Origin: an uncultured bacterium
GTDB taxonomy: Bacteria; T1Sed10-126
Assembly (NCBI GenBank): GCA_964566495.1
Contig: CAZMIT010000001.1
Coordinates: 1 to 56,582, forward strand
DNA length: 56,582 nt
Reading direction: 5' to 3'
Below are positions 1,133 through 36,607 of the stretch, in pieces; position 1 is the stretch's first letter, and each line of letters starts with the position of its first letter. A program made the position numbers and the translations under genes. The notes under the pieces are model-generated. The model saw nothing but the letters and a program-made list of their open reading frames with translations. It ran no database searches and was not told the DNA's origin.

Positions 1133-2752
1133 CTACATCTCTTCAGCAAACCAGCTGCGCAGCACCTGGGCGGCAGTTTCAGGATTGTCATCTACTGTTT
1201 CCTTAACCTGTTGAGCCATCTGTTCTTTTTCTTGTTGTTCAACCGAGACTTCAGCCATGAGATCACGCGCCGGCAGTTCGGGTTCCTCCTCGGGAGGCGC
1301 GGCCATTTCTTCCTCAGTCATTTGTTTTCGCCGCCGCTGCCAGAGCAACAGCAGCCCGGAGATAAAAAATGTTATTCCGAGAGCGATAGCGGCAAAATAA
1401 ATCACGCGACGACGGAAAGCCTCCTGACGCTCTTCTTCCAGCTGACGACGCATTTCATCCTCACGATCAAAACGCAAGTAGGAGACTTCTATCTGATCGC
1501 CGCGCTCCTCGTCATAACCAATCGCCGCTCGAGCCATACTTTGAATCGTTTCAATTTCCTCATCGGACGGCTCTTCATACTCCTGCACTATTTCTCCTGT
1601 CTCTTCGTCAACTTCTGTACTGTAGCGACCGTCAACACTTACAAGTGCCGACATCCGGGTGACCGCCGGGTCTTTCACAATCCGTTCCAGATTTTCATCG
1701 GCGTAATACTCAACCATACGTCGGTCTTCATCGTATCGGGTAAGATAATCGTCTTCCATCTCGTAACCGGGTATATTGGATTCGGTCCCCGCCGGTCCAC
1801 CGGGCTGTAAATCTCGCCCCTCCAACTCTCGACTTTCTTCCTGTTCCCGTCTGCGTAGCTGTTCAAAAGCTCCCTCGGGCATTCGATATTCCTTTATCTG
1901 CCGTTCAATTTCATCAAAATCCATGTCTACCGTTACCGCAACTGCCATCCGGTCACGGGTTAGCACCCGTCCGAGCGAGGACTGTAGTTTCCTCTCCAGC
2001 CGGTTCTCTATCTGACGCTTGACTTCCAGCTGCTGGGCCTGTTTCGTCGCTTCAGTATCCTCCGCATCAAAATCAGTTAAAACCCGGTTGTGCTGGTCCA
2101 TAATCGTGACGTTATTTCGATCCAACCCCACAACTCCGTAAGAGACAAGGTTAACAATCCCGTCAACCGTGGCGTCTTCAATATCAGTATAGGGGGCAAG
2201 CCGAAGCTGAACGGAAGCAGTAACCGGTTCCTCATCCTCTTTAAATAGAGCTTCCTCCTGGGGAAGAGCTATATTGACCGTAGCGTCTCGAATGTCGGGG
2301 TTAGAAACAATTGAACGTTCCAGACTGCCCTGCAGTGCCCGTTTATAGCGCATCTGACGTTCAAAGTTGGTTATCCCGATACCACCCTTTTCAAATATCT
2401 CAAAACCAACAGCGGTTTCAGGAAGCACATCGGCCTCGGCCAGTTCCAGGCGAAGCTCATCTACACGGGCCAGGGGAACTTTTACTACCTCCCGGTCGAC
2501 CCGGTGGGGAACTCCCATATCTTCAAGTTGTGCTGCTATCTGGGCGGCTTCCTGGGGGGCGAGATCACGGTTATAGAGTGGAACCCACTGGGGCTGAAAG
2601 GACCAGTACATGAGCACTGCCACAATAGCAACTGTTATTGAGACTATAACGATCAGTACTATTTGATTTTTTTGCGAAAGTCCAGCCCAAAAATCCGTTA
2701 ACTTTTCCCAAATTTGTTCCAAGATAGGCGGCATAACGATTCCCACTCCCAT
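1133..2752 (-). CDS. fliF: Flagellar M-ring protein FliF
   Basis: 539-aa ORF with an N-terminal TM segment, a large periplasmic region and a C-terminal TM segment followed by an acidic tail, which is the FliF architecture. It is positioned between fliE and fliG. The ATG at 2734 (M7, preceded by GGGAG) is a plausible alternative start. Confidence 0.88.
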   Translation of the reverse strand: MGVGIVMPPILEQIWEKLTDFWAGLSQKNQIVLIVIVSITVAIVAVLMYWSFQPQWVPLYNRDLAPQEAAQIAAQLEDMGVPHRVDREVVKVPLARVDELRLELAEADVLPETAVGFEIFEKGGIGITNFERQMRYKRALQGSLERSIVSNPDIRDATVNIALPQEEALFKEDEEPVTASVQLRLAPYTDIEDATVDGIVNLVSYGVVGLDRNNVTIMDQHNRVLTDFDAEDTEATKQAQQLEVKRQIENRLERKLQSSLGRVLTRDRMAVAVTVDMDFDEIERQIKEYRMPEGAFEQLRRREQEESRELEGRDLQPGGPAGTESNIPGYEMEDDYLTRYDEDRRMVEYYADENLERIVKDPAVTRMSALVSVDGRYSTEVDEETGEIVQEYEEPSDEEIETIQSMARAAIGYDEERGDQIEVSYLRFDREDEMRRQLEEERQEAFRRRVIYFAAIALGITFFISGLLLLWQRRRKQMTEEEMAAPPEEEPELPARDLMAEVSVEQQEKEQMAQQVKETVDDNPETAAQVLRSWFAEEM

Positions 2753-2912
2753 TCAAAATGTTAAGCTATCCAGTATTTATCAAGTTAAAAAAGTCTGTAA
2801 AGCCTTCACAGTGCAAAACACTTTCCGATTATTAAATTGTATTTGTGGGGCGCTAAACATGCACCTTGAATTTACAGATCAGCTAAGCCTTAAAAAGAAC
2901 AAGACCAAAAAT

Positions 2913-3251
2913 TTACTGCATCTGGGATAAGCGCTGGTAGGCATCCAGCAACTTCTGTCGCACCAGAGCAACGAGACGTATCGACATCTGAGCCTTCTGC
3001 TGGGCCACGGTTACATCATGAACATTATCAATTTCACCAGCGGCAAAAAGACGCATTTTTTCCTGCGCTTCTTCCTGTTTTCCTTCTACTTCGTTCAGTT
3101 TTTCTCCCAGAAAAGAAGTAAAATCCTCGGTAAGTTCTTTTGTGGTTGAGGTGGAGGGCTCCTCTGGGTCAGACAAAAGTGACATCTGACTCTGAGGGTT
3201 AATCGAGGTTATGTCGCTTGCTTCCTGCAATTTGCTTCCCTCCCATTCCAT
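2913..3251 (-). CDS. fliE: Flagellar hook-basal body complex protein FliE
   Basis: 112-aa ORF. The C-terminal 'VHDVTVAQQKAQMSIRLVALVRQKLLDAYQRLSQMQ' matches the conserved FliE C-terminus. It follows flgC as in canonical operons. Confidence 0.8.
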   Translation of the reverse strand: MEWEGSKLQEASDITSINPQSQMSLLSDPEEPSTSTTKELTEDFTSFLGEKLNEVEGKQEEAQEKMRLFAAGEIDNVHDVTVAQQKAQMSIRLVALVRQKLLDAYQRLSQMQ

Positions 3252-3348
3252 TCACTTAACTTCCATTCAGATCATAAATCTAAATTCCCCTGATCGATTG
3301 CGCTAAATGTAAGTATAAAGGGAAAAGAAAAAAATTGCAAAGATTTTT

Positions 3349-3798
3349 TTAATGAGCTATCTGTAAGGCTCTATTAAACATTTGTTTTGCTGATTCAACA
3401 GCGGTAGTATTTGCCTGGAAAGCGCGACTGGCCGTAATCATATCAACCATCTCCTTGACCGGTTCGACGTTCGGCTTCTCCACATAACCATCCTCCCCGG
3501 CATCGGGGTGGCTGGGGTCATGTACCCGTTTTGGCTCTCCTTCAGCTTCCGTTATTTCTGTAGCCCTGACACCACGTCCGCTATCCCGGGCGCTTAAACC
3601 CTGGCGGGGCAAAGAGATGAGTCCGGGGATCCCTCGTTCCTTCTTCTCTCGCGGCTCCAACCGTACCACTTTGCGCATGTAAGGTCCGCCATCCTCGGTA
3701 CGAGTCGTGTTGGAATTGGCAAGATTATCTGCAATCGTGTCCATACGCAGTCGTTCAGCAGTCATTCCTGTAGCCGATGTATCAATAGCTCCAAACAA
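3349..3798 (-). CDS. flgC: Flagellar basal-body rod protein FlgC
   Basis: The N-terminus 'MFGAIDTSATGMTAERLRMDTIADNLANSNTTRT' is the flagellar rod-protein signature. The C-terminal 'ASRAFQANTTAVESAKQMFNRAL' is also typical. Confidence 0.9.
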   Translation of the reverse strand: MFGAIDTSATGMTAERLRMDTIADNLANSNTTRTEDGGPYMRKVVRLEPREKKERGIPGLISLPRQGLSARDSGRGVRATEITEAEGEPKRVHDPSHPDAGEDGYVEKPNVEPVKEMVDMITASRAFQANTTAVESAKQMFNRALQIAH

Positions 3799-3811
3799 TT
3801 TTTATACCTCC

Positions 3812-4219
3812 CTAACGTTCAAGTGTACCCAGCAGTTGAGTCAGGTTGTTAAATTGCTTACGAGTCATCGTGGCAAGCCCGTTGTAATATAGAGTATTTT
3901 TGCTTAACTCAGCGGCTTCCTTGTCAGGATCAATATTGTTTTTGTCGTTGCGCATTGAGGTGTCGTCAACTTCGATAACTTCCGGCTGGACTTCGTCCCA
4001 GTCAGAATCAAACTCCCAGTCTCTGAAGGGCGAGGACCTGTCAAACTCATCCGGTATATATTTTTCCTTTAGCTGATCCTTGAAGGAAACATCACGACGT
4101 TTATAGCCCGGTGTGTTGGCGTTGGCAAGATTGTTAGAGAAAGCCTCGTGACGCTTGGTGGCTCCCCCCATGGCATCACGAAACATGTCAATTGTTCCCA
4201 TTTCCAATGATTGAGTCAT
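3812..4219 (-). CDS. flgB: Flagellar basal-body rod protein FlgB
   Basis: 'SNNLANANTPGYKRRDVSF' is the rod-protein N-terminal motif. At 135 aa it is the first gene of the flgB-flgC-fliE block. Confidence 0.85.
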   Translation of the reverse strand: MTQSLEMGTIDMFRDAMGGATKRHEAFSNNLANANTPGYKRRDVSFKDQLKEKYIPDEFDRSSPFRDWEFDSDWDEVQPEVIEVDDTSMRNDKNNIDPDKEAAELSKNTLYYNGLATMTRKQFNNLTQLLGTLER

Positions 4220-4316: not shown

Positions 4317-5219
4317 TTAAAAAGCTCGGGGATGGGCCTGATCGTAGATTTCCTTTAAGCGATCGGTGGATACATGCGTATAAATCTGTGTTGTTGAAAT
4401 AGTGGAATGCCCCAGAAGCTCCTGTACAGCCCTTAAATCGGCACCACGGTTAAGCATGTGGGTCGCACAGCTATGGCGAAAAACGTGAGGACTGATTGGT
4501 TTTTGGACGTCACAGCGGGCCTGGTATTTGTCAACAATATAACGGATGCCTCGCGAACTAAGAGAACCGCCTCTATTGTTCTGAAAAAGTGGGGCCTCAG
4601 AATCGGCGGTGACTTCCTTCCGATAATCTTCCAGCGCCTCGACCGCCGGCGGGCCAAGAGGCACTACACGCAACTTCCCCCCCTTGCCTGTCACTTCCAG
4701 TTGAGCTCTATCCGGGTCGTAGTCCCCCCACTTCAGGTTGCTAAGCTCCGAGACTCGGGCCCCGGTGGAATACAAAACTTCAAAGAGAGCCCGGTCACGT
4801 TTCTGGTTGTTGTCGTCCGACGAGGGAAGCTCAATAAACTGTGACATCTCTTTTTCGCTCCAAACGGTGGGAAGAGCTCGACTTGAATCCGTAAAAGAAA
4901 GGTCGGCGGCCGGATTGTCTTCCCTATCATTTCTGCGGGTTAAAAAGCCATAGAAAGCCTTTACAGCAGCCACTCGTCTTTCGACAGTGCTGTCGGCAAG
5001 CCCCCGTTCTCGCAGCCAGACTAAAAAGCTGCTCAACTGCTCCTCAGATGCTTCAAGTGGGGGAGTATCCTCAGAAATAGTATTTAGATACTGCTGAAGA
5101 ATCAATAAATCTTTTCGGTATGCACGTAGCGTATCGTCGGAATAGTTCTTTTCGTTGCGACAGTACTGGAGAAACCTTTCCACCGCCGGCGACGGCTCAA
5201 GCTCTATCTTTGAACTCAT
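4317..5219 (-). CDS. xerC: Tyrosine site-specific recombinase, XerC/XerD (CodV-like) family
   Basis: 300 aa. The N-terminal SAM-like domain reads 'YSDDTLRAYRKDLLIL'. Catalytic residues are visible in 'GARVSELSNL' (R), 'HVFRHSCATHML' (HxxR) and 'LGHSTISTTQIYTHV' (H and Y). Confidence 0.85.
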   Translation of the reverse strand: MSSKIELEPSPAVERFLQYCRNEKNYSDDTLRAYRKDLLILQQYLNTISEDTPPLEASEEQLSSFLVWLRERGLADSTVERRVAAVKAFYGFLTRRNDREDNPAADLSFTDSSRALPTVWSEKEMSQFIELPSSDDNNQKRDRALFEVLYSTGARVSELSNLKWGDYDPDRAQLEVTGKGGKLRVVPLGPPAVEALEDYRKEVTADSEAPLFQNNRGGSLSSRGIRYIVDKYQARCDVQKPISPHVFRHSCATHMLNRGADLRAVQELLGHSTISTTQIYTHVSTDRLKEIYDQAHPRAF

Positions 5220-12563: not shown

Positions 12564-14693
12564 TTATTTTTCGGCAAGTGGCCGGTAAGCGGATTCTTCA
12601 TACTCGCCGACCATGCGGTTGGTGTTGAAAAAACCGAGTGTCGATTTTATTGCCTCCCGCATACGGCTGATCCAGGCCGACGGCAGGCCCGACTCGTTGC
12701 GTTCGTAATAATCAGGCACAACCTCGTTTTCCAACGTCTCATAGAGAGAAACAGCGTCAACGTGATCCCCTTCTTCTGGTGGCCGCTCCTTTTCGTCACC
12801 GATTGTCCAGCCGTTTTCACCGTTATAGCCTTCAGCCCACCAGCCGTCAATTATGCTGAGATTCAAAACACCGTTAAAAGCTGCTTTCATACCACTGGTG
12901 CCGCTTGCCTCGTTGGGGCGGCGTGGTGTGTTAAGCCAAACGTCAACCCCCTGGACAAGCCGGGTGGCCAAACCAAGGTTATAATTTTCAAGGAAAATTA
13001 TTGAATTGCTTAGCTCTTCACGAGATTGATGCGCAAAAATATCCCGTATTAGCTGTTGACCAGGCTTATCAGCCGGATGGGCCTTACCGGCAAAAATTAT
13101 CTGGACCGGCCGTGACGAATCGGTTAACAACGCCTTTAAGCGCTCATAATCACGGAAAATCAGATCGGCTCGCTTATAGGTGGCGAACCGGCGAGCAAAC
13201 CCAATTTGCAGCGTATCAGTATCAAATAAACGGTCAATTTTAGCCAGCTCCGGAGGTGATTCACCGTGGCGTGATTTTTGTTCGTGCAAATTCTGCCGGG
13301 CAATACGTAAAAACCTCTCCTTCTGAAAACAATGCGCCTCCCATATCTCCTGGTCGGATAATGATTCCAGTCGAGCGATTATTTTTTCGAGATCGCTCTG
13401 CGACCAGGGCGATGGCGGAACTCGCAGCAGGTCACGAAAGTTTGTCCCCAGCCAGGTGGGGGCATGGACACCGTTAGTTATGGAAAAGAGTTTTTCGGAG
13501 TCCAACAACCCCCCCCACATTTCACCGGTTACCCGCTCATGAAGCTTGCTCACGCCATTCGTCCGTTCAGCCGAACGAATCGCAAAAGCTGTTAGATTAA
13601 ACTCCGTTGATGAATCCGACTCCGATCGCCCAAGTGCTACAAAATCTTCCAGGTTAAGATCTGTTTTTTCACAGAAATCTTCAAAATACTCTTCAATCAG
13701 GTCAACATCGTAGCGTTCGTGCCCGGCGACCACCGGCGTGTGGGTGGTGAAAAGTGTGCTTGAACTTATCTGTTTTAACGCCGAATCCAGGTCCTGACTT
13801 CCTGAAACTTCACTCTGCAACCGCTCAGTAACCTGGAAGACACTATGCCCCTCATTCATGTGCCAGACAGCAGGATCGATGTCAAGCGCCCGCAGCGCCT
13901 TGACCCCTCCTACCCCAAGAACAATCTCCTGACAGAGTCTCATCTCTCGTTTTCTTACGTAAAGCTGGCCGGTTACAGGCCGCAGCTCCGGTGGATTTTC
14001 GGGGAAATCAGAGTCAAGTAAAATAATGGGTATCTTACCCACCTGAACTTTCCAGACTCTTAAGTTGACGGTCTCGTCCTTGAGAGGACAGTTGATAACC
14101 AACGGATGTCCCTGGTCATTAAGTACTTCCTGAACTGGAAGTCTTGTGAAATCAATTCGGGGTAAAACATGATGCTGTGAGCCGTCGGCATCAACACACT
14201 GCTCGAAGTAACCATTACGGTAGAGCAACCCAATAGCGACGAGCGGCAGGTCACGGTCACTGGCAGATTTTACATGTTCGCCACTTAATACGCCCAGACC
14301 ACCGCTGAATATGGGAATACAGTCGTGAATACCGTATTCAGTTGAAAAATAGGCTACAGGACCGGGATAATCGTAACTGTCGCCGTTACCGCTATTGTTC
14401 ATATAGTTTTCAAACTCACGCACAACCTCGGAATAGAGGGATAAAAATTGCTCGTTATTCTGCAGGGGATACCAGTGTGGCGGGTCCATCTCCATAAGCA
14501 GCTCGACCGGATTCCGGTAGTGTGTCCAGCGATCAGGGCCAAGGAAACTGAACATGCGCATCGCTTTTGGCGACCAACTCCACCAGAGATTATAGGCCAG
14601 CTCAGGCAATTGACTGAATTCATCGGGAACATCAATTTCTATCGGCCGTCGAGACGTAAAATTTAAATCTTCTGTTTTTACCATCTTCATCAC
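12564..14693 (-). CDS. glgP: Alpha-glucan (glycogen/maltodextrin) phosphorylase, GT35
   Basis: 709 aa. The pyridoxal-phosphate lysine motif 'EASGTSGMKAAFNGVLNLSIIDGWW' is present, together with 'FTTHTPV' and 'GGLGVLSGEH'. Confidence 0.9.
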   Translation of the reverse strand: MMKMVKTEDLNFTSRRPIEIDVPDEFSQLPELAYNLWWSWSPKAMRMFSFLGPDRWTHYRNPVELLMEMDPPHWYPLQNNEQFLSLYSEVVREFENYMNNSGNGDSYDYPGPVAYFSTEYGIHDCIPIFSGGLGVLSGEHVKSASDRDLPLVAIGLLYRNGYFEQCVDADGSQHHVLPRIDFTRLPVQEVLNDQGHPLVINCPLKDETVNLRVWKVQVGKIPIILLDSDFPENPPELRPVTGQLYVRKREMRLCQEIVLGVGGVKALRALDIDPAVWHMNEGHSVFQVTERLQSEVSGSQDLDSALKQISSSTLFTTHTPVVAGHERYDVDLIEEYFEDFCEKTDLNLEDFVALGRSESDSSTEFNLTAFAIRSAERTNGVSKLHERVTGEMWGGLLDSEKLFSITNGVHAPTWLGTNFRDLLRVPPSPWSQSDLEKIIARLESLSDQEIWEAHCFQKERFLRIARQNLHEQKSRHGESPPELAKIDRLFDTDTLQIGFARRFATYKRADLIFRDYERLKALLTDSSRPVQIIFAGKAHPADKPGQQLIRDIFAHQSREELSNSIIFLENYNLGLATRLVQGVDVWLNTPRRPNEASGTSGMKAAFNGVLNLSIIDGWWAEGYNGENGWTIGDEKERPPEEGDHVDAVSLYETLENEVVPDYYERNESGLPSAWISRMREAIKSTLGFFNTNRMVGEYEESAYRPLAEK

Positions 14694-15087: not shown

Positions 15088-15930
15088 TTAAGCGTTTGGA
15101 TTATACCGTCTAAAAACATCCGACACCAGCTCTTGAAAGTAATCCATTATCCTGCGACAGTCTTCGGGAAGCGAGTCGGAGTTAGGAACTTTTATCACTT
15201 CTAAAAACCAATCGTCCACGTAGGCGTTTTTTACTAGTAGTTTAAGCACTTCACGAAAATCTATCCGGCCTTCACCGGGAGGCAGATGATCGTCCTTCGT
15301 GCCACGGTTATCACTGAGATGAGTGTGGCGGATTCGCCGACCGAATTCCTCAATATAATCGGCAATTGTTGACTTACTGAGGAAGGCATGACTGGTATCC
15401 AGAGTGAGATAAAACTCACCGTCAGTATGTTGGTCCAGCCACTTAAGCTCCGGAAGAGTGCCACCCAGGTGGTGAGGAAGCGTATTTTCCATACATATTT
15501 TAAGCGGACGATCGGCCAGGTAATTCAGCAAACGGTTGGTAAAGCTGGCCGAAGCCTCCAGCGCCCGCCGCGCCTTATTTTCATCCTCCGGCCGGCGCGT
15601 CCCCGGGTGCAAAACCATCCTTCTTATACCAAGCTGAAGACTGTGTTCAATAAGACGCCGGTAAATGTCAAAGGCCCTGTTGGCGTGAGTCGGGTCGGGA
15701 TTATCTATCGCCCAGCCGTCACGTGAAGGGGGATGGACTGCAACGTAATTCATATTATGGTTGATTTTAAATTTGCGCAGTGCATTTATCAATCGCGCAT
15801 CAAGCAGATTAGCATGCGATTTCTCGGCCCACAGCTCAACATTACTTATGCCCTCGGCGGAAAATACTTTTAGAACATCAAGCACGTGCCAGGAGTAACG
15901 TATACCAGTGGTCAAACCTATATTGTACAA
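15088..15930 (-). CDS. AP-endonuclease-2 / xylose-isomerase-like TIM-barrel protein (endonuclease IV-like metal site)
   Basis: 280 aa. The motifs 'VAVHPP', 'VLHPG', 'CMENT', 'LDTSHAF', 'HTHLSDN..DDHLPPGEGRIDF' and 'FLEV' can be aligned by eye with the nine metal ligands of endonuclease IV. Membership of the superfamily is firm. Whether it is a nuclease or a sugar isomerase is not resolved. Confidence 0.7.
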   Translation of the reverse strand: MYNIGLTTGIRYSWHVLDVLKVFSAEGISNVELWAEKSHANLLDARLINALRKFKINHNMNYVAVHPPSRDGWAIDNPDPTHANRAFDIYRRLIEHSLQLGIRRMVLHPGTRRPEDENKARRALEASASFTNRLLNYLADRPLKICMENTLPHHLGGTLPELKWLDQHTDGEFYLTLDTSHAFLSKSTIADYIEEFGRRIRHTHLSDNRGTKDDHLPPGEGRIDFREVLKLLVKNAYVDDWFLEVIKVPNSDSLPEDCRRIMDYFQELVSDVFRRYNPNA

Positions 15931-15949: not shown

Positions 15950-17332
15950 TCAGGGACGTTCTCCTACGTTATAACCACAGAAGGGTTTGGTACATATCCC
16001 ACGTTCCTGAAAGGAGACGCAGTTCATATCCGTATATTCGTCCCTGCCGGTTTGAATTAATGTGTAGAAAAAGCGAACCCAGACGTCGGCCCGGGTGGCA
16101 GCATCGTAGTGATACCAGTCTTCCGACCAGTTGTAATCACGTTCAAACTTACTGCGAATTAATCCTGCTACGTCCTTGGGATGCCAGCCACGATCGCTAA
16201 ACCAACGCACAAACGACTGAATGTGCGTTGGTTCTAACAACCGCGGATTGGGACGGCGAAGCGATTCACCCAGACAGTGGGGAAGCTCGTTCGGACTGAC
16301 CCGGTCGTAAGTTTTATGCCAGTCATAATGTGGATCCTGGTAGCCACTGTCAAACTCGTCATGAGCAGACCCGACAGAGGAACTATTATACTCATCAATC
16401 ATTTTCTTGACCGCCGCCGACATCTCAGGAATACTGGTACTCTCAATTTTTCGAGCATATTTTTGCACTGCTTCCGGCCGCCGACGAAGGTCCAGTAGTT
16501 CCCCCAACGATTTATCAGCCACGGGGAGAGTATATTGAGGTGGAATTGTCCGCCGGATGTAATCGCCTACCTTGTGCACGTAAACCCGGTGCTTCTGATG
16601 CGAACTGAAAGGAACCCGCACATCGCGCATGTAGAGCGGGTCGGCAAACATACTGAGGTCTAAATTAATCTGTTCTCGACCTCTGTAGGAAGGTCCGGGT
16701 ACCCCGTCGCCAATCGTCAGGGGAAGTTCACACTGGTTGCCCACCCGCTCGACCAACTCACCGGCCATCCATTCAAAAAGCCGTCCCAGCCCATCATAGG
16801 CCTCTCCTTCGGCAAGTGGCAGCTCCGGCTCCTGAACGTCATACTTCGCTGCCAGCGTCCAATTAATCGAACCAATTTGAGCGAGGTCTTTATAAGCCTT
16901 ACTTTTTTTGGAGACACGAAACGAAAAATGATACCCCTGGCCGGTCATCAGGATTAACGGCTCAATATCGTATTCTGCAAAAAATTTCCGCGCTACCTCA
17001 AGGAAAGGCTGCAAACGCCCGTAGCCATACTCCGGCTGTCGATAGACGAGCGCCGGGTCGTCATGATTTACATATTCAACGTCAAAGACACATACCATGT
17101 CCTCACTGTCCCAGGTGGAACGAAACAGGTCCAGCCCCTCATCAACAAACCAGCTAAACCCCCACTCGGGTGGCGCCGACTCGTAATTCCCCTCCCGATG
17201 CAAAAACGCAGGACCAAAGCCAACTAAATAAATGGCCGAGATGTCCTCTGGCTTGCCAGTTTCAGCACCGCAGTATTCAAGCATCCGCTTCTGAACGACC
17301 GGGTCCTTATAATAATCCTTAACTGTTAACAT
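15950..17332 (-). CDS. PriS-like archaeo-eukaryotic primase (AEP) superfamily protein with Cys-rich PriL-CTD-like C-terminal domain
   Basis: 460 aa. AEP motif I is 'CVFDVEYVNHDD', motif II is 'TGQGYHFSF' and motif III is 'INLDLS' plus 'RDVRVPFSSHQKH'. The C-terminal region has 'LPHCLGESL...FVRWFSDRGW' and 'NCVSFQERGICTKPFC', giving four Cys. The call rests on motif recognition only. Confidence 0.5.
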   Translation of the reverse strand: MLTVKDYYKDPVVQKRMLEYCGAETGKPEDISAIYLVGFGPAFLHREGNYESAPPEWGFSWFVDEGLDLFRSTWDSEDMVCVFDVEYVNHDDPALVYRQPEYGYGRLQPFLEVARKFFAEYDIEPLILMTGQGYHFSFRVSKKSKAYKDLAQIGSINWTLAAKYDVQEPELPLAEGEAYDGLGRLFEWMAGELVERVGNQCELPLTIGDGVPGPSYRGREQINLDLSMFADPLYMRDVRVPFSSHQKHRVYVHKVGDYIRRTIPPQYTLPVADKSLGELLDLRRRPEAVQKYARKIESTSIPEMSAAVKKMIDEYNSSSVGSAHDEFDSGYQDPHYDWHKTYDRVSPNELPHCLGESLRRPNPRLLEPTHIQSFVRWFSDRGWHPKDVAGLIRSKFERDYNWSEDWYHYDAATRADVWVRFFYTLIQTGRDEYTDMNCVSFQERGICTKPFCGYNVGERP

Positions 17333-17342
17333 AGCCTGCTCC

Positions 17343-18560
17343 TCATAATAAAGTTAGCGGTTTTTCAAGATTGTTCTTAATATCGGTTAGAAAACTGGCT
17401 GCGTCGGTGCCGTTTACCGCCCGGTGATCGCTGCCCAGCGAGAGGCTAAGAAGCTGCCCGGGCAGGCACTTTCCGTCTTTCACAACTGGTTGCTGGCGCA
17501 CCCTTCCGGCGGCAAGTATACCCACCTGGGGAGGGTTTATTATGGCAGAAAAACGGTCAATGCCACGGCGACCGAGGTTATAAACCGTAAAGGTCGCTTT
17601 TCGAAAACTTTCTGGTCCTAATTTGCCGGCCTGCAACTTGTCCTGTAACTCTTTCTTCCGGCTGTGAATTTCAAAGATAGATCGACGATCTGCCCGCTCA
17701 ATTACGGGTGTAAACAGGTCTGATTCGACGGCGACCACAAAGGCCAGGTCTACACGATCATATACCTGCAGATGATCCCCCTCGTAGGAGGAGTTATAGA
17801 CGGGATTGTCACATAGAGCCCGAGCAACTGCAGCTAAAATAAAGTCATTATTGTCGAGTTCATAGCCCAATTCGCTTAACTGCTCTTTAACTTTTGACGT
17901 CGGTTGAGCGTCAACTTCGACGCTAAGATCAAGCTGGGGAATCTCTCGCCTGGATTTGCTCATGTTCTTCCCCACCGCGGCTTGATTTTTTGAAATTTGA
18001 TGTTTTTCGGCACGCAGGCGGCGGGGAGAAAAGATAGTGTGAGGAGTTCTTGACTCGCCATTTTTCTCTGGTTTATCACCAAAACCTTGCTCCACCGCCT
18101 TTTCAATATCCGCTTTAACCACCCTCCCCTCGGCTCCAGAGCCTTCTATCCTGGAGGGATCAATATCATACTTGTCCGCCAGACGCCGAGCTGCTGGCGC
18201 AATCCGCTCCTCGGGGTCAGCTATCTTGGAAGTTTCCTTGACAGTCTCGCGGCCGCTCTTTTCAGTCTTTCGCTGCGATTTTTTTGGCTCCTCCCCTTCT
18301 ACCGCTGACGGTTCAGAGGCGGGCGCGTCAGCAATTATTGCTATCGTCCCATCCACGGGTACCTCCGTCCCGGCCACCACTTTTTTCTCGCGCAAAATAC
18401 CGTCCTCGGGAGCCTCGAGGTCCAGAGCGGCCTTGTCAGTTTCAACCTCTGCTATTACTTCGCCTGTTTCCACTTCCTGGTCCTCTTCCACGAGCCAGTT
18501 GACAAGTAAACCGCTCTCCATATCTTCGGTTAGCTTTGGCATCTTCATTTCAACAGCCAT
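17343..18560 (-). CDS. 2-oxoacid dehydrogenase E2 component (dihydrolipoamide acyltransferase)
   Basis: It has a lipoyl domain ('EVETDKAALDLEAPEDG'), a subunit-binding domain ('APAARRLADKYDIDPSRIEGSGAEGRVVKADI') and a catalytic domain with 'DHRAVNG'. Confidence 0.85.
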   Translation of the reverse strand: MAVEMKMPKLTEDMESGLLVNWLVEEDQEVETGEVIAEVETDKAALDLEAPEDGILREKKVVAGTEVPVDGTIAIIADAPASEPSAVEGEEPKKSQRKTEKSGRETVKETSKIADPEERIAPAARRLADKYDIDPSRIEGSGAEGRVVKADIEKAVEQGFGDKPEKNGESRTPHTIFSPRRLRAEKHQISKNQAAVGKNMSKSRREIPQLDLSVEVDAQPTSKVKEQLSELGYELDNNDFILAAVARALCDNPVYNSSYEGDHLQVYDRVDLAFVVAVESDLFTPVIERADRRSIFEIHSRKKELQDKLQAGKLGPESFRKATFTVYNLGRRGIDRFSAIINPPQVGILAAGRVRQQPVVKDGKCLPGQLLSLSLGSDHRAVNGTDAASFLTDIKNNLEKPLTLL

Positions 18561-18605: not shown

Positions 18606-19469
18606 CTATTGCTCCAGTTTTGCCACATCCTCGACGTGGAGAGGCAAATTATCCTTGAGCCTCACATCACCGGCATAGCCGGCCAGAATAACCACAGCAT
18701 CTCGATCCCCCGGCCAGGCTGGGTCGTAGTGAGGAAAACGTACAACGTCCAGATATTGCAGGTCAAAACCCGCTTCCTCCAGCCGGGGAACATAACGACT
18801 GAAGAGTTTTTGCCGACTCAGCTCAGCCGCCTCTTCTTTGATTGAACGCATGATCTCGTAAACTTCTTGAGCAGTTTCCCAGCCGCTCTCGTCCAGTCCC
18901 TGGTTACGCGAGCTGTAGGCGATACCGTTTTCATCCCGAATTACCTGCACGGGAACAATTTCCTGCTGGAAAAGCAGATCTTCAACCATGCGACTGACAA
19001 CTATGTATTGTTGCAGATCTTTCTGGCCAAAATAAACGCGATCAGCGGGTACAGCGTTAAGCAGTTTACTCACCACGGTTATAACCCCGGCAAAAAAATT
19101 CGGGCGAATTGCACCCTCGTAGCAGCGAGTTACGGAACTATTGCTCACCACCTGGGTAGCATTACCGGGTGGATACATCTCAGCGTCGTCCGGGTGGAAG
19201 ATAACGTTAACCCCGGACTCGGCGGCCAGCTTTTTGTCACGCTCAAAATCCCGAGGATAGGCTTCGGCGTCCGTCTCAGAATCAAACTGCTGGGCGTTCA
19301 CGTATATGCTGGCCACTGTTACATCGTTTTCCTTCGCGGCACGTCGAAACAGGGCACAGTGCCCCTCGTGAAGGGCACCCAGGGTAGGAACAAATCCAAC
19401 GCTTTTGTCCTCTTTCCTTAGCTGTAACACTTCCCGGTTTATTTCTTCTGCCGTAGATAATACTTTCAT
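18606..19469 (-). CDS. panC: Pantoate--beta-alanine ligase
   Basis: 'VPTLGALHEGH' is the HIGH-type motif. The ORF is 287 aa and overlaps panB by 4 nt. Confidence 0.9.
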   Translation of the reverse strand: MKVLSTAEEINREVLQLRKEDKSVGFVPTLGALHEGHCALFRRAAKENDVTVASIYVNAQQFDSETDAEAYPRDFERDKKLAAESGVNVIFHPDDAEMYPPGNATQVVSNSSVTRCYEGAIRPNFFAGVITVVSKLLNAVPADRVYFGQKDLQQYIVVSRMVEDLLFQQEIVPVQVIRDENGIAYSSRNQGLDESGWETAQEVYEIMRSIKEEAAELSRQKLFSRYVPRLEEAGFDLQYLDVVRFPHYDPAWPGDRDAVVILAGYAGDVRLKDNLPLHVEDVAKLEQ

Positions 19470-20311
19470 CTTGCTTCGAGGAGCAGCTCACGAACCTGTT
19501 CGGAGGAAAGTTTCTCACCGACAGAAAAACTCTCTTCCGAAGCGGGAAATTCTTCCTTTTTTACTGCCTCACAGAAAGAATTAACGCCGTCGGAAAGCCA
19601 CTCTCTCATTTCACCCCACTTTCTAACAAAAGTTGGTATTTGATCAGTTAAACCCATCATATCCTGCCAGACCAGCACCTGGCCGCTGCATTCCAGGCCG
19701 GCGCCGATTCCAATCGTTGGCAGATCAATTAACTCAGTCAATTCAGCCCCCACTTCCTCCGGCACGCACTCTAAAACAAGAGCCGAAATACCGGCCCGCT
19801 CGAGCGCAAATGCTTCCCTACCAAGTTCCTCTATGTTCTCCCTGGTTTTGGCCTGAACTCCGTAGCCACCGAGAGCTTCAATTGACTGGGGAGTTAGTCC
19901 CAGATGCCCGATAACCGGGACATCGTGAGCAACCAGGTGCTCTATCAGATCAAGATTTCTCTCCCCGCCTTCGAGTTTAATCGCCTGCGCCCCTCCCTCT
20001 TGCATTAACCGACGAGCTGCACGCACCCCACTCTCAAGCTCCAGGGCTGCCTCCAGGAAGGGAAAGTCCGTCACAAGAAAAGTATTTTTGACGGCGCGAC
20101 TGACTGCGGCCGTGTGATGAACCATGTCCTCAATAGTAACCGGAATTGTCGAGTCATAACCAAGCATAACCCCGCCCAGACTATCACCAACCAGGATCAT
20201 GTCCAGCCCGTCAACTTCGTCCATCACCCGCGCAGTCAGATAATCATAACAGGTCAAACAGGTCAAAGGCTCACGGGCTCCGCGTATATCAACTATTGAC
20301 GGTCTACTCAT
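19466..20311 (-). CDS. panB: 3-methyl-2-oxobutanoate hydroxymethyltransferase
   Basis: It contains 'LTCYDYLTA', 'ILVGDSLGGVMLGY' and 'AIKLEGG'. The ORF is 281 aa. Confidence 0.9.
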   Translation of the reverse strand: MSRPSIVDIRGAREPLTCLTCYDYLTARVMDEVDGLDMILVGDSLGGVMLGYDSTIPVTIEDMVHHTAAVSRAVKNTFLVTDFPFLEAALELESGVRAARRLMQEGGAQAIKLEGGERNLDLIEHLVAHDVPVIGHLGLTPQSIEALGGYGVQAKTRENIEELGREAFALERAGISALVLECVPEEVGAELTELIDLPTIGIGAGLECSGQVLVWQDMMGLTDQIPTFVRKWGEMREWLSDGVNSFCEAVKKEEFPASEESFSVGEKLSSEQVRELLLEAR

Positions 20312-20625
20312 CTACGCTTGTCCTCCCAACGTTTGAAAGCCCGTTCGAACTCTTTCTCTGAAGGCTCCTCTCCACTGCTCGTTTCTTCCAGTATTTCTTC
20401 AAATTTTCTGTAGCGATCAGAATTTTTCAGAAGGGGAAGTTTGAAGACCATAATATAGAGCAAGATGGCATCCGCCATAATTAAAAAACCGGCAGTCAGT
20501 GCCAATACCTGGCGGTGAAAATCCTGCACTGCCGGCAGTGAGTGAGCCAGAACCAGGGCCAGCACATTAAAACTTCCAACCACAAATAAAAAGGAAATCA
20601 GGCGTAAATAAAACACCACAAACAC
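20308..20625 (-). CDS. Small membrane protein (unknown function)
   Basis: 105 aa with two to three hydrophobic helices and a charged tail. Its stop overlaps the panB start (ATGA-type coupling). Confidence 0.5.
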   Translation of the reverse strand: MFVVFYLRLISFLFVVGSFNVLALVLAHSLPAVQDFHRQVLALTAGFLIMADAILLYIMVFKLPLLKNSDRYRKFEEILEETSSGEEPSEKEFERAFKRWEDKRR

Positions 20626-21178: not shown

Positions 21179-22243
21179 ATGACTTATTTATCATCAATCC
21201 AGGCTACTGCAAATCTGACCGGACGAGACTATTTTTCCTTCCCCACCAGAACTGAAGATGAAGACCGCCCCTTCGCCGCTGATAGAAGGGAGAGGCATGA
21301 TTTTCCTCGCCAGAGACAACTACAGCAATTTGAAAGAGAACGGCCGTTAGCCAACCTTGTTACCCGGGCAAATGGATTCTCTCTTGAGGATGCTATTGAA
21401 CGGCAAAAAACTGTAAACATTCCCGGCGGAACCAGGCTGGATATAACCGGCGAAGTGACAATTGAGACCAGCGAGGGAGACTCCCTGGAGCTGGACGAAG
21501 ACTCACAAGCTCGTATTTTTCAAAGAGATCGGCGACACGCAATAATTCAGGACCGTGAAACTGAAGAGGAAATCAGGCTGCGGCGCGGTGATAATTTCAC
21601 AGTCAACGGAGAAGGCGAAGCACGCCTGGAGGGACGCTTCGACAGCCTTGAGCTGCCCGATACGGAGACTTTTGAGTTACGAAGCGACGCAAACGGAGGG
21701 CTGGAAGTTAGAAGGCCGGCGACAGAAAGACAGCTCTCGATTGAAAATGGCCAGCCGATTGAAATAGAGGTTGAAGAGGACCAGTATCTCTCCTTTCTGG
21801 ACGGTGGCGAGGCAATACGTTTTGAGAGCGGCGACGAGGGCTGGCTGGAAGCAGCCGGCGATGATATGGTCGCACTGCTGAACATAGATACGGGACGACG
21901 TATGGAATTTCCCGCTGAACGCTCCATCTCAATTGTTGGCGAGGGCGAGGCGACAATTGGCGGGCAGATAGAGGTTAATGACAACCGGCGCCTGCGCTTT
22001 GAAGATTTAGACGGCGAACTATTTGTTTTTGAACCGTCAAGCGCCGAGCAGACAGAAGTCGCTCCGTTAATGCGCGAACCGGGCCATTACGACAGGATAA
22101 CCTTTCACCAGCCACCTAACGGTCGGTTAAACCAGTTAGAACACATGTTGGAAGCATTTCTTGCTCCGCAAGAAGAAGACCCGTTTGACGGCCGCGACGG
22201 TGCTTTTCAACCGCCCGGCGGACAGATCGACATATTTGCCTGA
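21179..22243 (+). CDS. Hypothetical acidic protein with internal repeats
   Basis: 354-aa ORF with a good RBS. No signal peptide or TM segment is visible. 'GEGEA(R/T)(L/I)(E/G)G' segments are repeated. I recognise no family. Confidence 0.6.
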   Translation: MTYLSSIQATANLTGRDYFSFPTRTEDEDRPFAADRRERHDFPRQRQLQQFERERPLANLVTRANGFSLEDAIERQKTVNIPGGTRLDITGEVTIETSEGDSLELDEDSQARIFQRDRRHAIIQDRETEEEIRLRRGDNFTVNGEGEARLEGRFDSLELPDTETFELRSDANGGLEVRRPATERQLSIENGQPIEIEVEEDQYLSFLDGGEAIRFESGDEGWLEAAGDDMVALLNIDTGRRMEFPAERSISIVGEGEATIGGQIEVNDNRRLRFEDLDGELFVFEPSSAEQTEVAPLMREPGHYDRITFHQPPNGRLNQLEHMLEAFLAPQEEDPFDGRDGAFQPPGGQIDIFA

Positions 22244-25061: not shown

Positions 25062-25946
25062 TCATTCCAACCCCGTTTTCTCTTCTCCTAAAAATTTTTC
25101 CTCAATGTATTGATGAGCTCGCTTCTCCAACAACCCAAGTTTATCTTTGTTCTCCTTTATTAAGCCTTTTTTCTCCTTCCCATTTTTAATCAGCCGGTCT
25201 ACAACTTCTACCCCAAACAGCGGTTCCCCGGCTGGATAAAGTAATTCTTTATTTTGCTCGCCCAGCAGCTCGTCCCAGGGAGCTGACCGGGCCGCTATCA
25301 ATGCTGAGTGCTGTAGCTGATCCAGGGCCCGGAGGACGTTAGCACCCCGGCTGTCAAGTAACCAGGTTAATTCGGTAGCTTTAACCTTTTCCGGCTGACA
25401 ATATTCGACCTCCAGTTGCTCAGAACAATGAAATTTATCATCGCTTTTATTAGCCGCCACCTGTACCCCTGAAACTTCCGATAGCTCGGCAAGCTCACTC
25501 AGAATACTATTAATTAACCGTTCCGGCTGAGTTTCGCTCCCTAACAGGGTCAACCAGCCCGGCTCTGGCTCTCCGCGCGGTGGCTCAATCCACCACAGAA
25601 GTGGCGAGTCCGGCTTAATTTTATATGTTGATTCTTTCGCCGCCGGTTCGTTCAGTCGACTCAGCCTCGGTCCTTCAAGTACGGTCCCCGTTAAATTACA
25701 GAAACAATCGAAAAACCGTTTCTCACGCAACCTCCAATATAAAACATCTTCCCTAAAATTGTTAAAAAGATAAAAGAAAAAGTTTTTGTATTTTTCCTCG
25801 TCAAGAGAGCTAATGTCTGAAACGCCAATCGCTACCAGGTCCAGATCAAACTTTGCTAAAAAATCAGCTGTCCTGGAAAGCCAACGTTCCACTAACGGTC
25901 CCCGGATTAGACTGTCAAGCAGAAGCGCCAACTGTTTTCTCTCCAC
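25062..25946 (-). CDS. Hypothetical protein
   Basis: 294-aa ORF. Its start codon abuts the purB stop at 25946. I see no recognisable motifs. Confidence 0.55.
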   Translation of the reverse strand: MERKQLALLLDSLIRGPLVERWLSRTADFLAKFDLDLVAIGVSDISSLDEEKYKNFFFYLFNNFREDVLYWRLREKRFFDCFCNLTGTVLEGPRLSRLNEPAAKESTYKIKPDSPLLWWIEPPRGEPEPGWLTLLGSETQPERLINSILSELAELSEVSGVQVAANKSDDKFHCSEQLEVEYCQPEKVKATELTWLLDSRGANVLRALDQLQHSALIAARSAPWDELLGEQNKELLYPAGEPLFGVEVVDRLIKNGKEKKGLIKENKDKLGLLEKRAHQYIEEKFLGEEKTGLE

Positions 25947-27267: not shown

Positions 27268-28743
27268 TTAATGACTGAACAGGCGCCTGCCGGCAAAAAC
27301 AAGGCAAATTCCGTGCTGGTTGGCCGCCGCGATTACCTCCTCATCGCGAATTGAACCACCTGGAACAACGATAGCATCAATGCCGGCTTCTGCCGCCATC
27401 TCCACGTTATCAGGGAAAGGAAAAAAACCGTCGGAGGCAAGAACAAGCGGCCGTCCTTTGAACTCGGGATGATGCTCTCGCAGTTTTTGCGTCGCAAGCT
27501 TTACCGCATCCACCCGGCTCTGCTGGCCGGCGCCCACCCCCAGCGCCATGTCCCGCGTTCCTACTACCGCGGCATTGCTGGTCACGAACCGGACCAGCCG
27601 CCACATCTGTTTAAGCGCCTGCTCCCCGTCTTCTGTCGGAGAACGTTCACTCACCGGCTTCCAGTCCTTATAAATATCATCCCTTGCTTCAACTGACTGG
27701 TAAAGGAAAAGGTTGGCAAAACTTTTAAAATCTTCCCCTGTCTCAAAAATCTCCGGCGGCGCTTCGATGAGTCGCGGCCGCGTCTGATTTGCCAGCGCTT
27801 CAACCACTTCGTTCTCAAACCCGGGAGCGACAACCACTTCAATAAAATAATCCTCAATCTGCTCCAAGCATTCGGCGGTAAAGGTTCTGTTAAGGCCAAG
27901 CACCCCCCCATAGGCACTTTTAGGATCTCCGGCCCAGGCGGAATTAATTACCTCCTCAAGCCGTTCACCGGCCGCCCACCCGGTCGGATTGGTGTGTTTT
28001 ATCATGGTTGCCTCCGTCCGTTGATCTCCCAAGAGCCTAAAAGCAGCTCGCAGGTCGAGACAGTTGGTGTAAGAGAGCGCCTCGCCGGCAACTTGGTTGA
28101 ACGGTAATTTTGTCTCCGACTTACCGTAAAACGCCGCCGCCTGGTGGGGATTTTCCCCATAGCGCAGGTTGTCCAGACGGCGCGGCGCTACCGGCACCGC
28201 CGGTGAGTCGGAAGCGTCGAGACAGCCGGCAAATTCAGCGTCATAAGATAAGCACCGTCCAATAGCTTTTCTGGCCAGCCGCCGTCGTATTTCTTCGGAC
28301 GGCGGATAGTTTTCAATCAACAGTTCCGCCCCCGCCCGGTCGACTACCGGCAGAACCTGGCGATAATTCTTGGCCGCGGCTCGTAACATGCTCACACCGC
28401 CAATATCCACCTTCTTTAAGTTTACCTCCCCATCCTCGCAGTGAAACGGGGTTAAATCAACAGCCACCCCTTTTATGTTTAGTCGCTCCTCACCCTCCCC
28501 AAGCAGAGCCGTGTACAGGTCCGGATGCAGGGTCTTAACCTGGCCCTGCAGACGGGGGCTGAGCTTAAAGATATCTTCGATTGTTTCGCACTTAACCCCC
28601 CGCTTTCTGCACCAGTCGGCCGTTCCAGCCGTGGCAAGTAAATTAAACTCGCCCAGCCTGCTCAGGGCTTTTACAAAATCAGCGTAAGACTCTTTGTCAT
28701 ACAGGGATAGCAAAAAATAATCTTTTTTAGTCATAGCATCCAT
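27268..28743 (-). CDS. purH: Bifunctional AICAR formyltransferase / IMP cyclohydrolase
   Basis: The MGS-like N-domain reads 'LSLYDKE...LLATAGTA...GQVKTLHP'. The C-terminus 'GRRLFSH' is typical of PurH. The ORF is 491 aa. Confidence 0.85.
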
Positions 28744-29279
28744 TCTTCCTTTTCATTATAAATTGGTCCAGAATCAGTTAATTCGCTCTCGTATAAAATT
28801 AACCGGTCAAGACTAAACTCCGGCCTCTTCTCCGGCTCCTCACGCAGCCAGGCGTTAACCGCTTCCCGACAGCGTTTTGGTTCTTTCAAACGCATCAATG
28901 TCACGTGCGGAACGTAGTCGTGGTTCTCAGGCTCAAGTCCAACGTATTCTCCCACTGCCTCAGACGCTTCAAAAATTTTTTCCAGCGGCTTCCGGGGCTT
29001 TATCCCCGCCCAGATAACACGCGGAAAAGATGGATTGGGGAAGGCACCATATCCGCCTATTTTTGCCTCAAGCGGCCCCGGTGTCGGCAGACGTCTCTGC
29101 AAGCCGGAAGTAAGCTGCCGCCGCTGCTCTTGCGTGATATCGCCAAGGAACTTAACGGTGACGTGAAAATTTTCCGGTGCTACCGGCTTGGTCTCCGGCA
29201 AATCCAGCAATTCAGACTGCCTGGCCGCCAAAAAATCACGCACCGGCTCTGCTATCGGAAAACCTAAAAAAGCTCGCAT
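28731..29279 (-). CDS. thpR: RNA 2',3'-cyclic phosphodiesterase (2H phosphoesterase, ThpR/LigT family)
   Basis: Two HxT motifs are present, 'HVTVKFLG' and 'HVTLMRL'. The ORF is 182 aa. Confidence 0.8.
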   Translation of the reverse strand: MRAFLGFPIAEPVRDFLAARQSELLDLPETKPVAPENFHVTVKFLGDITQEQRRQLTSGLQRRLPTPGPLEAKIGGYGAFPNPSFPRVIWAGIKPRKPLEKIFEASEAVGEYVGLEPENHDYVPHVTLMRLKEPKRCREAVNAWLREEPEKRPEFSLDRLILYESELTDSGPIYNEKEEWML

Positions 29280-35728: not shown

Positions 35729-36607
35729 TTAATGAACAACAGCCATTTCACGTATTTCCTCCAGCGTAACCGGCCCGATACCGGAAATATTTTTCAATTC
35801 CTCCAGGTTATCAAATCCACCACGTTCCTCCCTGTATTCAACAATTTCAGCAGCACGCACGGGGCCCACCCGGGGTAATTTTACTAAATCCTGCTGACTG
35901 GCCGAATTAATATTAATTCGGTCGGGCTCGCTGACCGCCGGCGCAGCGGGAGCTGTCGCTTCGTCGAGGCGGACGTAATCTTCCATTTGCTGAATAGTTG
36001 CCGGCCCCAGGCCGTCAATATTTTGTAACTCTTCCAGGCTTGCAATCCCCCCCTGTCGCTCCCGGTAGCTAATTATCTCCTGCGCCGTCACCTCTCCAAC
36101 CCGGGGCAATTCCTTCAATTTATCAATATCCGCTTCATTTATATCTATCTCCGGCCCTGCCTCCTCCTGCGGTAAATCTGCGACAACCACGTCAGGTCCG
36201 ACGGTTGCTTCCGGTCGAATGTTTTCAACCGTCGAGGGTCCGATACCGCTTATTTCCTTCAAATCATCGATAGTCCTGAACTGGTTACCGGCCTCCCTGT
36301 ATTCCAGTATACTCTTTGCCGTCGCCGGACCTACCTGGGGGAGCTGCTGTAGTTCCTCAAAAGAAGCAGCGTTGACGTCAATCTTCCAGTCGAGTTCAAT
36401 CCGCTGTTTCTCGGACTCTGAAGTGACATAAAGATTTAGTTCTGTTTCGGGAAGTTTGTTCAGTTTGGGGGAAGGCAACTCTCGATCTTCTTCGCCGCTT
36501 ACTTCATCCGCGTGGTAAGTCTCATAGCGCATCGACACACCCGGTAGGGCAATAATACACAAAAAAACCAGCGCTAAGACAAAAAACAGCTGATCCTTAT
36601 TCACCAC
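35729..36607 (-). CDS. comEA: ComEA-like membrane-anchored protein with three tandem helix-hairpin-helix domains
   Basis: There is an N-terminal TM segment. Three units of the form 'N.A...(E/D)L..LP.VGP..A..I..YRE..G.F....(E/D)L..I.G(I/L)GP.T' are present. Confidence 0.8.
   Translation of the reverse strand: MVNKDQLFFVLALVFLCIIALPGVSMRYETYHADEVSGEEDRELPSPKLNKLPETELNLYVTSESEKQRIELDWKIDVNAASFEELQQLPQVGPATAKSILEYREAGNQFRTIDDLKEISGIGPSTVENIRPEATVGPDVVVADLPQEEAGPEIDINEADIDKLKELPRVGEVTAQEIISYRERQGGIASLEELQNIDGLGPATIQQMEDYVRLDEATAPAAPAVSEPDRININSASQQDLVKLPRVGPVRAAEIVEYREERGGFDNLEELKNISGIGPVTLEEIREMAVVH

Follow-up and report, generated by a model that had tools for sequence, protein, structure and literature searches.

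The question raised by this locus is whether an uncultured bacterium carries on its own chromosome a single-chain primase of the PriS-PriL type, or a different kind of enzyme built on the archaeo-eukaryotic primase (AEP) fold. The DNA examined is contig CAZMIT010000001.1 of assembly GCA_964566495.1 (lineage T1Sed10-126), the whole 56,582 nucleotides of which are referred to here as the window. The gene in question, named AEPX, is an ATG-to-stop open reading frame (ORF) of 460 amino acids (aa) plus stop at window positions 15950-17332. An earlier note on this DNA had described its product as a PriS-like primase with a domain resembling the C-terminal domain of PriL (PriL-CTD), encoded in a metabolic operon. 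The ORF, the motif strings, the residue numbers and the 10-nt and 19-nt gaps to the flanking genes given in that note were all reproduced from the translation; the strand, which it did not state, is minus. Our answer is that AEPX belongs to an undescribed bacterial AEP family, in which both the accessory domain and the partner, an endonuclease-IV-like TIM-barrel protein, are new. No description of this family was found in the literature searched.

The full-length protein was modelled with AlphaFold2 (AF2) from a 55-sequence alignment, giving a pLDDT of 93 and a pTM of 0.93, and this model shows the whole gene product as one chain with an AEP fold and, at its C-terminus, a helical domain bearing four cysteines. 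When the model was compared with the PDB using Foldseek, every one of the matches at ranks 1-12 was an AEP enzyme, and 11 of these 12 had TM-scores of 0.48-0.57 normalised on the target. The top matches were to mycobacterial Prim-PolC (6sa0, 6sa1 and 5op0) and the polymerase domain of LigD (PolDom, 2r9l), with E-values of 1e-3 to 1e-2, a probability of 1.00 and TM-scores of 0.48-0.52 (target). They were followed by CAPP (CRISPR-associated Prim-Pol, 7p9j; TM 0.38-0.57), and the AEP domains of poxvirus D5/E5 and human PriS trailed with far weaker scores. A comparison with the predicted viral structures in BFVD gave weak matches that were enriched in phage and viral primases. The PDB matches place the AEP (primase-polymerase) catalytic domain at about aa 60-270 (16523-17155, minus strand, as for all parts of this gene). 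It is preceded by an N-terminal region, aa 1-59 (17156-17332), delimited from the list of conserved positions and the secondary structure of the model, in which Y8, V13, R16 and G22 are conserved.

Three AEP motifs in the correct order had been reported for this protein from the letters alone, and this is confirmed by their near-invariance and, in the model, by their position on the strands where they would be expected. Motif I (CVFDVEYVNHDD, aa 81-92, 17057-17092) contains D84 and E86 and lies in model strand 78-89, and motif II (TGQGYHFSF, aa 130-138, 16919-16945) contains G133 and H135 at the start of strand 133-141. Motif III consists of INLDLS, in which D225 ends strand 220-225, plus RDVRVPFSSHQKH (aa 236-248), which supplies R236, R239, S243 and K247; together these occupy 16589-16669. 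The R-x-P-F-S-x-H/Y-x-K element is typical of AEP polymerases. Among 318 unique near-full-length homologues, conservation was 97% for D84, 98% for E/D86, 99.7% for G133, 94% for H135, 99% for D225, 98% for R236, 97% for R239 and 94% for K247. The catalytic D, E and H residues, whose conservation the earlier note had made a point on which its reading could fail, are thus conserved at 94-99% in this set, and the motif residues are also invariant or almost so in the 55-sequence alignment. In the model, the predicted active site for metal and NTP binding, formed by D84/E86, H135, D225 and R236/R239/K247, is shown as intact.

Sequence comparison gave a different result. None of the 55 aligned family members matched the Pfam AEP models, including DNA_primase_S, at E<=1, and searches of Pfam, NCBIfam, PHROGs, PADLOC and the PDB sequences with both the protein and the 55-sequence profile returned nothing usable. 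The profile and structure check that had been suggested for this gene was divided in its outcome, with an AEP-fold match by AF2 and Foldseek but no match to a Pfam AEP profile. On the basis of the model, membership is well supported as regards fold and active site, and it is very probable that AEPX belongs to the AEP superfamily.

Within the superfamily, the protein had been assigned to the PriS type rather than the LigD or PrimPol types. This assignment does not stand, as there is no DNA_primase_S match and PriS ranks below the repair AEPs; human PriS (4bpu and 4bpw) appears at Foldseek ranks 21-22 (E 1.6, probability 0.13), behind Prim-PolC, LigD and CAPP. A zinc-binding Cys/His motif is typical of the PriS catalytic subunit. 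No cysteine in aa 1-270 is conserved at >=90% in the 55-sequence alignment, and a PriS-type zinc motif is therefore not evident.

The rest of the protein, aa 271-460 (15953-16522), forms an all-helical domain that contains the family signature WHP[KR][HD][IV]AGLIRSK[FY]ERD. Four cysteines, C353 (within an LPPC motif), C438, C447 and C452, span 15977-16276 and mark a putative Fe-S or zinc site. These residues, already pointed out in the earlier note, proved to be conserved, with all four present in 258 of the 318 homologues (81%), three in 24 and none in 30 (9%). As they are kept or lost together, one shared metal centre is suggested, for which the four cysteines would act as a single ligand set, putatively holding an Fe-S cluster or zinc.

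The proposed likeness of this domain to PriL-CTD could not be sustained. Modelled alone by AF2 (pLDDT 88), the domain gave a best Foldseek E-value of 2.6 against the PDB, with the pRN1 primase present in the list at E 9.4 and PriL chains absent from it, although PriL-CTD sequences were confirmed, with a human p58C query, to be present in the PDB sequence copy. The domain profile matched no PDB sequence. Using hhalign, the domain was compared with a 30-sequence alignment of eukaryotic PriL-CTD, which gave a probability of 1% over 16 columns round the (F/L)PPC motif, and with human p58C alone, which gave 2.5%. This profile-profile comparison covers eukaryotic PriL, and the best 120 matches of a search with the eukaryotic profile were all eukaryotic PriL. 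PF04104 was the sole recurrent Pfam family, found in 8 of 55 members with E>=0.012 and scores of about 12 bits, below the cut-off of 22.4, the sub-threshold matches falling at similar profile positions (44-157); the AEPX protein of the window itself had no PF04104 match. The cysteine spacing, C-x84-C-x8-C-x4-C, differs from that of human PriL, whose cluster ligands we take to be C287, C367, C384 and C424. Judged from its model, the domain is best regarded as a helical domain of a new kind, without a detectable relative of known structure, and it may have a very remote kinship to the PriL/PriCT/PriX class.

These results bear directly on whether AEPX is nevertheless a genuine single-chain primase, either a functional analogue or a very remote homologue of PriS plus PriL-CTD, in which a 4Fe-4S cysteine domain would position the initiating nucleotide for DnaG-independent priming, for example in lesion repriming or replication restart. 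The repair AEPs LigD PolDom and Prim-PolC are not known to have a helical accessory domain, and this counts in favour of a primase, since a helical domain is always present and conserved in the family, together with its four co-varying cysteines. AEP primases that initiate de novo carry such a domain, in the form of PriL-CTD, PriX or PriCT-1/2 (PMC5862659). Further support comes from the correspondence of the LPPC motif to the PPC motif of PriL, from the recurrence of PF04104 as described above, with similar profile positions in the two members examined, and from single-chain PriS-PriL fusions known from archaea and their plasmids (PMC3973330, PMC10250227). Set against this are the C-terminal model, which has no Foldseek likeness to any PriL-CTD chain, the very low hhalign and PF04104 scores, the cysteine spacing, and a catalytic domain that is nearer in structure to repair polymerases than to PriS. 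A primase would also leave the conserved endonuclease-IV-like partner unexplained, and overall we consider this reading unlikely. A bolder version holds that widespread bacteria (the PVC group, Elusimicrobiota, Hydrogenedentota and others) have a second, DnaG-independent priming system, in which a single-chain AEP primase with an Fe-S domain convergent with or remotely homologous to PriL-CTD would be wired to an endonuclease-IV-type nuclease for lesion processing and repriming; this we regard as distinctly improbable.

The partner is encoded by the next gene, at 15088-15930 on the minus strand, which starts after a gap of 19 nt from the end of AEPX. Its 280-aa product is an AP_endonuc_2 TIM barrel (Pfam PF01261, E 1.2e-30) with a predicted metal site of the endonuclease IV type. 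Neighbourhoods were analysed for 84 AEPX loci, to about 4 kb on each side, and an AP_endonuc_2 gene was found directly downstream on the same strand in 36 of them. These 36 loci come from several deep clades, and the phylum-level groups represented number at least seven, among them Planctomycetota, Verrucomicrobiota, Elusimicrobiota, Ignavibacteria, Dehalococcoidales, Chitinispirillales and the lineage of the window. In addition there are two natural fusions, P0145 (747 aa) and P0158 (724 aa), in which the AP_endonuc_2 barrel forms the C-terminus of the AEPX protein. The TIM-barrel gene, previously taken for an unrelated neighbour, is instead the sole conserved partner. Two further loci, L080 (from a metagenome-assembled genome (MAG) of Pseudomonadota, 2414-3598) and L084 (Thermodesulfobacteriota MAG, 2680-3876), have a different and more divergent AP_endonuc_2 gene of about 400 aa directly upstream of AEPX. 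Locus L088 has an ORF of similar size to these at 2708-3913.

The invariant residues of the partner are H66, H108, E148, D178, H181, H204, D213, H215 and E244. The trinuclear metal site of E. coli endonuclease IV (Nfo, 1qtw) has nine ligands, which we take to be H69, H109, E145, D179, H182, H216, D229, H231 and E261. The last eight of these align with partner residues H108, E148, D178, H181, H204, D213, H215 and E244 respectively, so by alignment the partner keeps at least eight of the nine predicted ligands. The E. coli Nfo sequence used for this alignment gave the same 1qtw score and coordinates as the PDB search. Sugar epimerases of the AP_endonuc_2 superfamily use just four of the endonuclease IV ligand positions and are not known to have the extra His and Asp residues; taken with the eight matched ligands, this points to a site of the endonuclease IV type. 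In the PDB search, sugar epimerases scored as high as Nfo against the partner profile, and the best relative was MJ1311 (3wqo, E 3.5e-42). MJ1311 is listed as a predicted EndoIV homologue of Methanocaldococcus jannaschii (PMC2770678), and no reported function for it was found in the literature searched for MJ1311/3WQO.

The reading that we prefer, and infer with about even confidence from the analysis as a whole, is that AEPX and its endonuclease-IV-like partner together form a DNA repair module combining end-cleaning with gap-filling or repriming. In this module the endonuclease-IV-like enzyme would incise abasic sites or strip 3'-blocking groups (phosphate, phosphoglycolate), after which the AEP enzyme would bind the processed gap or end and extend or re-prime with NTPs or dNTPs. 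The cysteine domain would be an accessory module that binds DNA or the initiating nucleotide, as is needed by other primases. Such a module would parallel the LigD polymerase with its 3'-phosphoesterase, and also the mycobacterial Prim-PolC/EndoIV gap repair that has been reconstituted, where Prim-PolC fills gaps after 3'-dephosphorylation by EndoIV, and EndoIV co-purifies with LigC, the ligase bound by Prim-PolC (PMC5663958).

Several observations weigh against this proposal. The Foldseek matches reach only marginal E-values (1e-3), the family is not tied to known AEPs by any sequence profile, and no ligase, Ku, glycosylase or helicase gene recurs beside AEPX in the 84 loci, within about 4 kb on either side. 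For the partner, the ninth Nfo ligand, H69, aligns ambiguously, with the invariant H66 falling opposite Nfo H60. With the nfo model TIGR00587 the partner reaches 35.4 bits, where the cut-off is 129.65. The NCBIfam model that fits it best is CbiR, and there too it stays under the threshold, with 64 bits for a cut-off of 105 (E 1.5e-17); the AP_endonuc_2 superfamily also holds sugar isomerases and the cobamide phosphodiesterase CbiR (PMC7733943). The pairing is also far from universal, as the downstream TIM barrel is replaced by a tandem AEPX paralogue in 21 loci, and many others lack both. Lastly, one family member, P0206 (612 aa), has an N-terminal pair of CBS domains before the AEP protein, and CBS pairs are more typical of metabolic enzymes.

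Part of this evidence would suit an enzyme pair acting on something other than DNA. The product of the AEP-like palm might be a nucleotide-containing small molecule, a signalling oligonucleotide or a modified RNA end, which the TIM-barrel phosphodiesterase might degrade or process, in the manner of GGDEF-EAL proteins or of cofactor remodelling by CbiR. CbiR, the closest named model of the partner even though the score is under its cut-off, shows that the superfamily can hydrolyse non-DNA phosphodiesters (PMC7733943). Fusions of a synthase-hydrolase type and the CBS-pair fusion are consistent with this, as are the flanking genes, which are housekeeping or metabolic and include no DNA-repair genes. 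Weak Foldseek matches of AEPX to nucleotide cyclases and Thg1 show a common palm fold, but the cyclases appear solely at E>1 with probabilities <0.2, and the better-scoring structural neighbours are all DNA- or RNA-polymerising AEPs. The polymerase-type element of motif III and the extra His and Asp ligands retained by the partner, which sugar epimerases are not known to have, also argue against a non-DNA substrate, and no cobamide, signalling-effector or other pathway genes recur in the 84 loci. We therefore think that a role of this kind is unlikely, and retain the repair module as the preferred reading.

Among the loci examined, the tandem-copy and TIM-barrel arrangements were mutually exclusive. 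The tandem paralogues were found in loci L004 (4268-7151), L014, L021, L022, L030, L032, L034, L038, L042, L044, L045, L047, L048, L051-L053, L058, L068, L069, L071 and L079. Both copies retain D84, E86, H135 and D225, and the second copies have the four cysteines in 17 of the 21 loci. Bacterial second copies form their own clade. L058, L068, L071 and L079, which come from MAGs labelled Methanosarcinales or Woesearchaeota, belong to a small clade in MAGs with archaeal or DPANN labels; in these four loci the second copy has lost all four cysteines, and its catalytic residues are kept.

The family is widespread. A search of 5.8 billion proteins recovered 186 relatives of AEPX, nearly all of 440-510 aa, aligning end to end and either unnamed or annotated as 'hypothetical', and a profile search of 1.84 billion cluster representatives recovered 682, of which 316 were below E 1e-30; full-length members are about 460-500 aa. 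In a scan of one genome per GTDB species, 401 genomes had an AEPX relative. Carriers include Elusimicrobiota, Lindowbacteria, Hydrogenedentota, Planctomycetota (with the cultured Roseiconus nitratireducens), Verrucomicrobiota (Methylacidimicrobium), Chlamydiota, Ignavibacteria, Thermodesulfobacteriota, Dehalococcoidales, Chitinispirillales and MAGs labelled Clostridia, and a few carrier MAGs are labelled DPANN or Methanosarcinales.

As most of the bacterial AEPs described belong to mobile elements (PMC5862659), AEPX could also derive from a mobile element or defence system, as a leftover or domesticated replication protein that lies in a metabolic operon by chance. Searches of 50,697 phage records, 72,556 plasmid records and the viral contigs of IMG/VR gave no relatives, and PADLOC gave no match for AEPX. 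No helicase, integrase or capsid gene neighbours AEPX in the 84 loci, the synteny with the partner is stable across phyla, and GC content is flat across the window. The window itself is ordinary chromosome, with fliF/fliG, a Xer-type recombinase, dprA, secDF, panBC, gdh, purB/purH, a UvrD-like helicase and competence/pilus genes. The statement that no integrase, phage or plasmid genes flank AEPX holds in substance, the sole integrase-family gene in the window being the 300-aa Xer-type recombinase (4317-5219), which lies 11 kb off and adjoins dprA. A mobile-element or defence origin is largely refuted by the collections without relatives, the negative PADLOC result and the flat GC content, and we give it hardly any credence. 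The family is chromosomally inherited, and cellular rather than mobile.

On the upstream side, the stop of a gene for an E2 dihydrolipoamide acyltransferase (17343-18560, minus strand; Pfam 2-oxoacid_dh, lipoyl and E3-binding domains) is separated from the start of AEPX by 10 nt, and both genes downstream of E2 have a GGAGG-type ribosome-binding site about 7 nt 5' of the start. The E2 gene is context only and not a conserved partner: linkage of panB-panC-E2 to AEPX is confined to L010 and L011, from the window's own lineage. The 'metabolic operon' is accordingly a lineage-specific setting, and the suggested check for a conserved neighbourhood holds for the TIM barrel but not for panB-panC-E2. 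We also rejected a connection with pantothenate or phosphopantetheine metabolism, since panBC (in the window) and ACPS (in Methylacidimicrobium) each accompany AEPX in a single lineage. A link to glycogen or glucan metabolism was downgraded, as the upstream 'GlgA' cluster is mostly GT4 glycosyltransferase and the seed searches match few lineages. Alpha-glucan genes (glucan phosphorylase, GlgE/Mak/GlgB, a phosphoglucomutase-like gene and one GlgA-like gene) do occur within a few kb of AEPX in several unrelated lineages, a weak association, at 12564-14693 (minus strand) in the window, 13.1-17.4 kb in L007/L008, 10303-11658 in L009, 1640-3121 in L014 and 2-1882 in L022. Scans of the AEPX operon for promoters and terminators, and the isoelectric points of the AEPX domains, were uninformative.

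Other features of the window were noted. The E2 gene stands alone downstream of panB-panC (18606-20311, minus strand), with no E1 or E3 among the neighbouring ORFs scanned. A 1613-aa secretin (41616-46457, minus strand) has a ComEA-like helix-hairpin-helix (HHH_3) segment near its C-terminus and clusters with a ComEA-like protein, ComEC and a PilM-like protein (35729-36607, 36642-39653 and 50996-53599); these genes probably make up a competence-pilus locus, unusual in its fusion of a secretin with a DNA-binding segment. Four ORFs have no Pfam match: 20308-20625 (minus strand, 105 aa), 21179-22243 (plus strand, 354 aa), 25062-25946 (minus strand, 294 aa) and 40383-41579 (minus strand, 398 aa). 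The 105-aa and 354-aa ORFs also have no NCBIfam match, and these two and the 294-aa ORF have no PADLOC match; counterparts of the 354-aa and 105-aa ORFs occur at the same positions in L001, a locus from a related MAG. A gene for a LigT-type 2H phosphoesterase of the 2'-5' RNA ligase family (28731-29279, minus strand) shares 13 nt with the start of purH.

The bacterial AEPs known so far are mostly polymerases of non-homologous end joining and base excision repair (LigD, Prim-PolC) or replicases of mobile elements, and the AEPX family belongs to neither group. About 400 species-level genomes, drawn from many phyla that have received little study, contain the family, and it is invisible to Pfam and NCBIfam. 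If the role in repair or repriming is true, it would amount to a DNA-damage pathway new to bacteria and to a new type of accessory domain for AEP enzymes, and would bear on how frequently primase-type helper domains and Fe-S clusters have been independently recruited. AEPX and its partner are a cleanly testable pair, and cultured hosts exist in Roseiconus nitratireducens and Methylacidimicrobium.

By the membership tests applied, the family falls outside PriS, PriL-CTD and the LigD/LigC-associated group, and its resemblance to known systems is divided between them. Prim-PolC and LigD PolDom (6sa0, 5op0, 2r9l), the best structural neighbours, are like AEPX bacterial and chromosomal, and work with a phosphoesterase that heals 3' ends (the PE domain in LigD, and EndoIV with Prim-PolC/LigC; PMC5663958), just as AEPX is paired with an endonuclease-IV-like gene. 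They differ in that no sequence-profile similarity to AEPX was detected and no ligase or Ku gene lies near it, and AEPX has an extra 190-aa four-cysteine helical domain and a range that takes in the PVC group, Elusimicrobiota, Hydrogenedentota and others. The partner shares the AP_endonuc_2 TIM barrel of endonuclease IV and MJ1311, with eight Nfo ligands aligned, but scores under the nfo cut-off. PolpTN2 of the Thermococcus plasmid pTN2 and the primase of Nanoarchaeum equitans have the same order of parts as AEPX, with the AEP catalytic domain at the N-terminus of a single chain and a helical domain containing cysteines after it. These are recognisable homologues of PriS and PriL and are archaeal or plasmid-borne, whereas the two halves of AEPX match neither the profiles nor the structures, and AEPX lies on bacterial chromosomes with an endonuclease-IV-like enzyme as its partner. 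The PrimPol-PriCT families (Kazlauskas et al. 2018, PMC5862659) likewise fuse an AEP to a helical accessory domain, thought to be the counterpart of PriL-CTD, but they occur on mobile elements and are usually linked to a helicase, whereas AEPX has no phage, plasmid or viral relative in the collections searched, no helicase neighbour and no PriCT match in Pfam. The closest systems to AEPX are therefore Prim-PolC and LigD PolDom by structure, and the PriS-PriL fusions and PrimPol-PriCT proteins by architecture.

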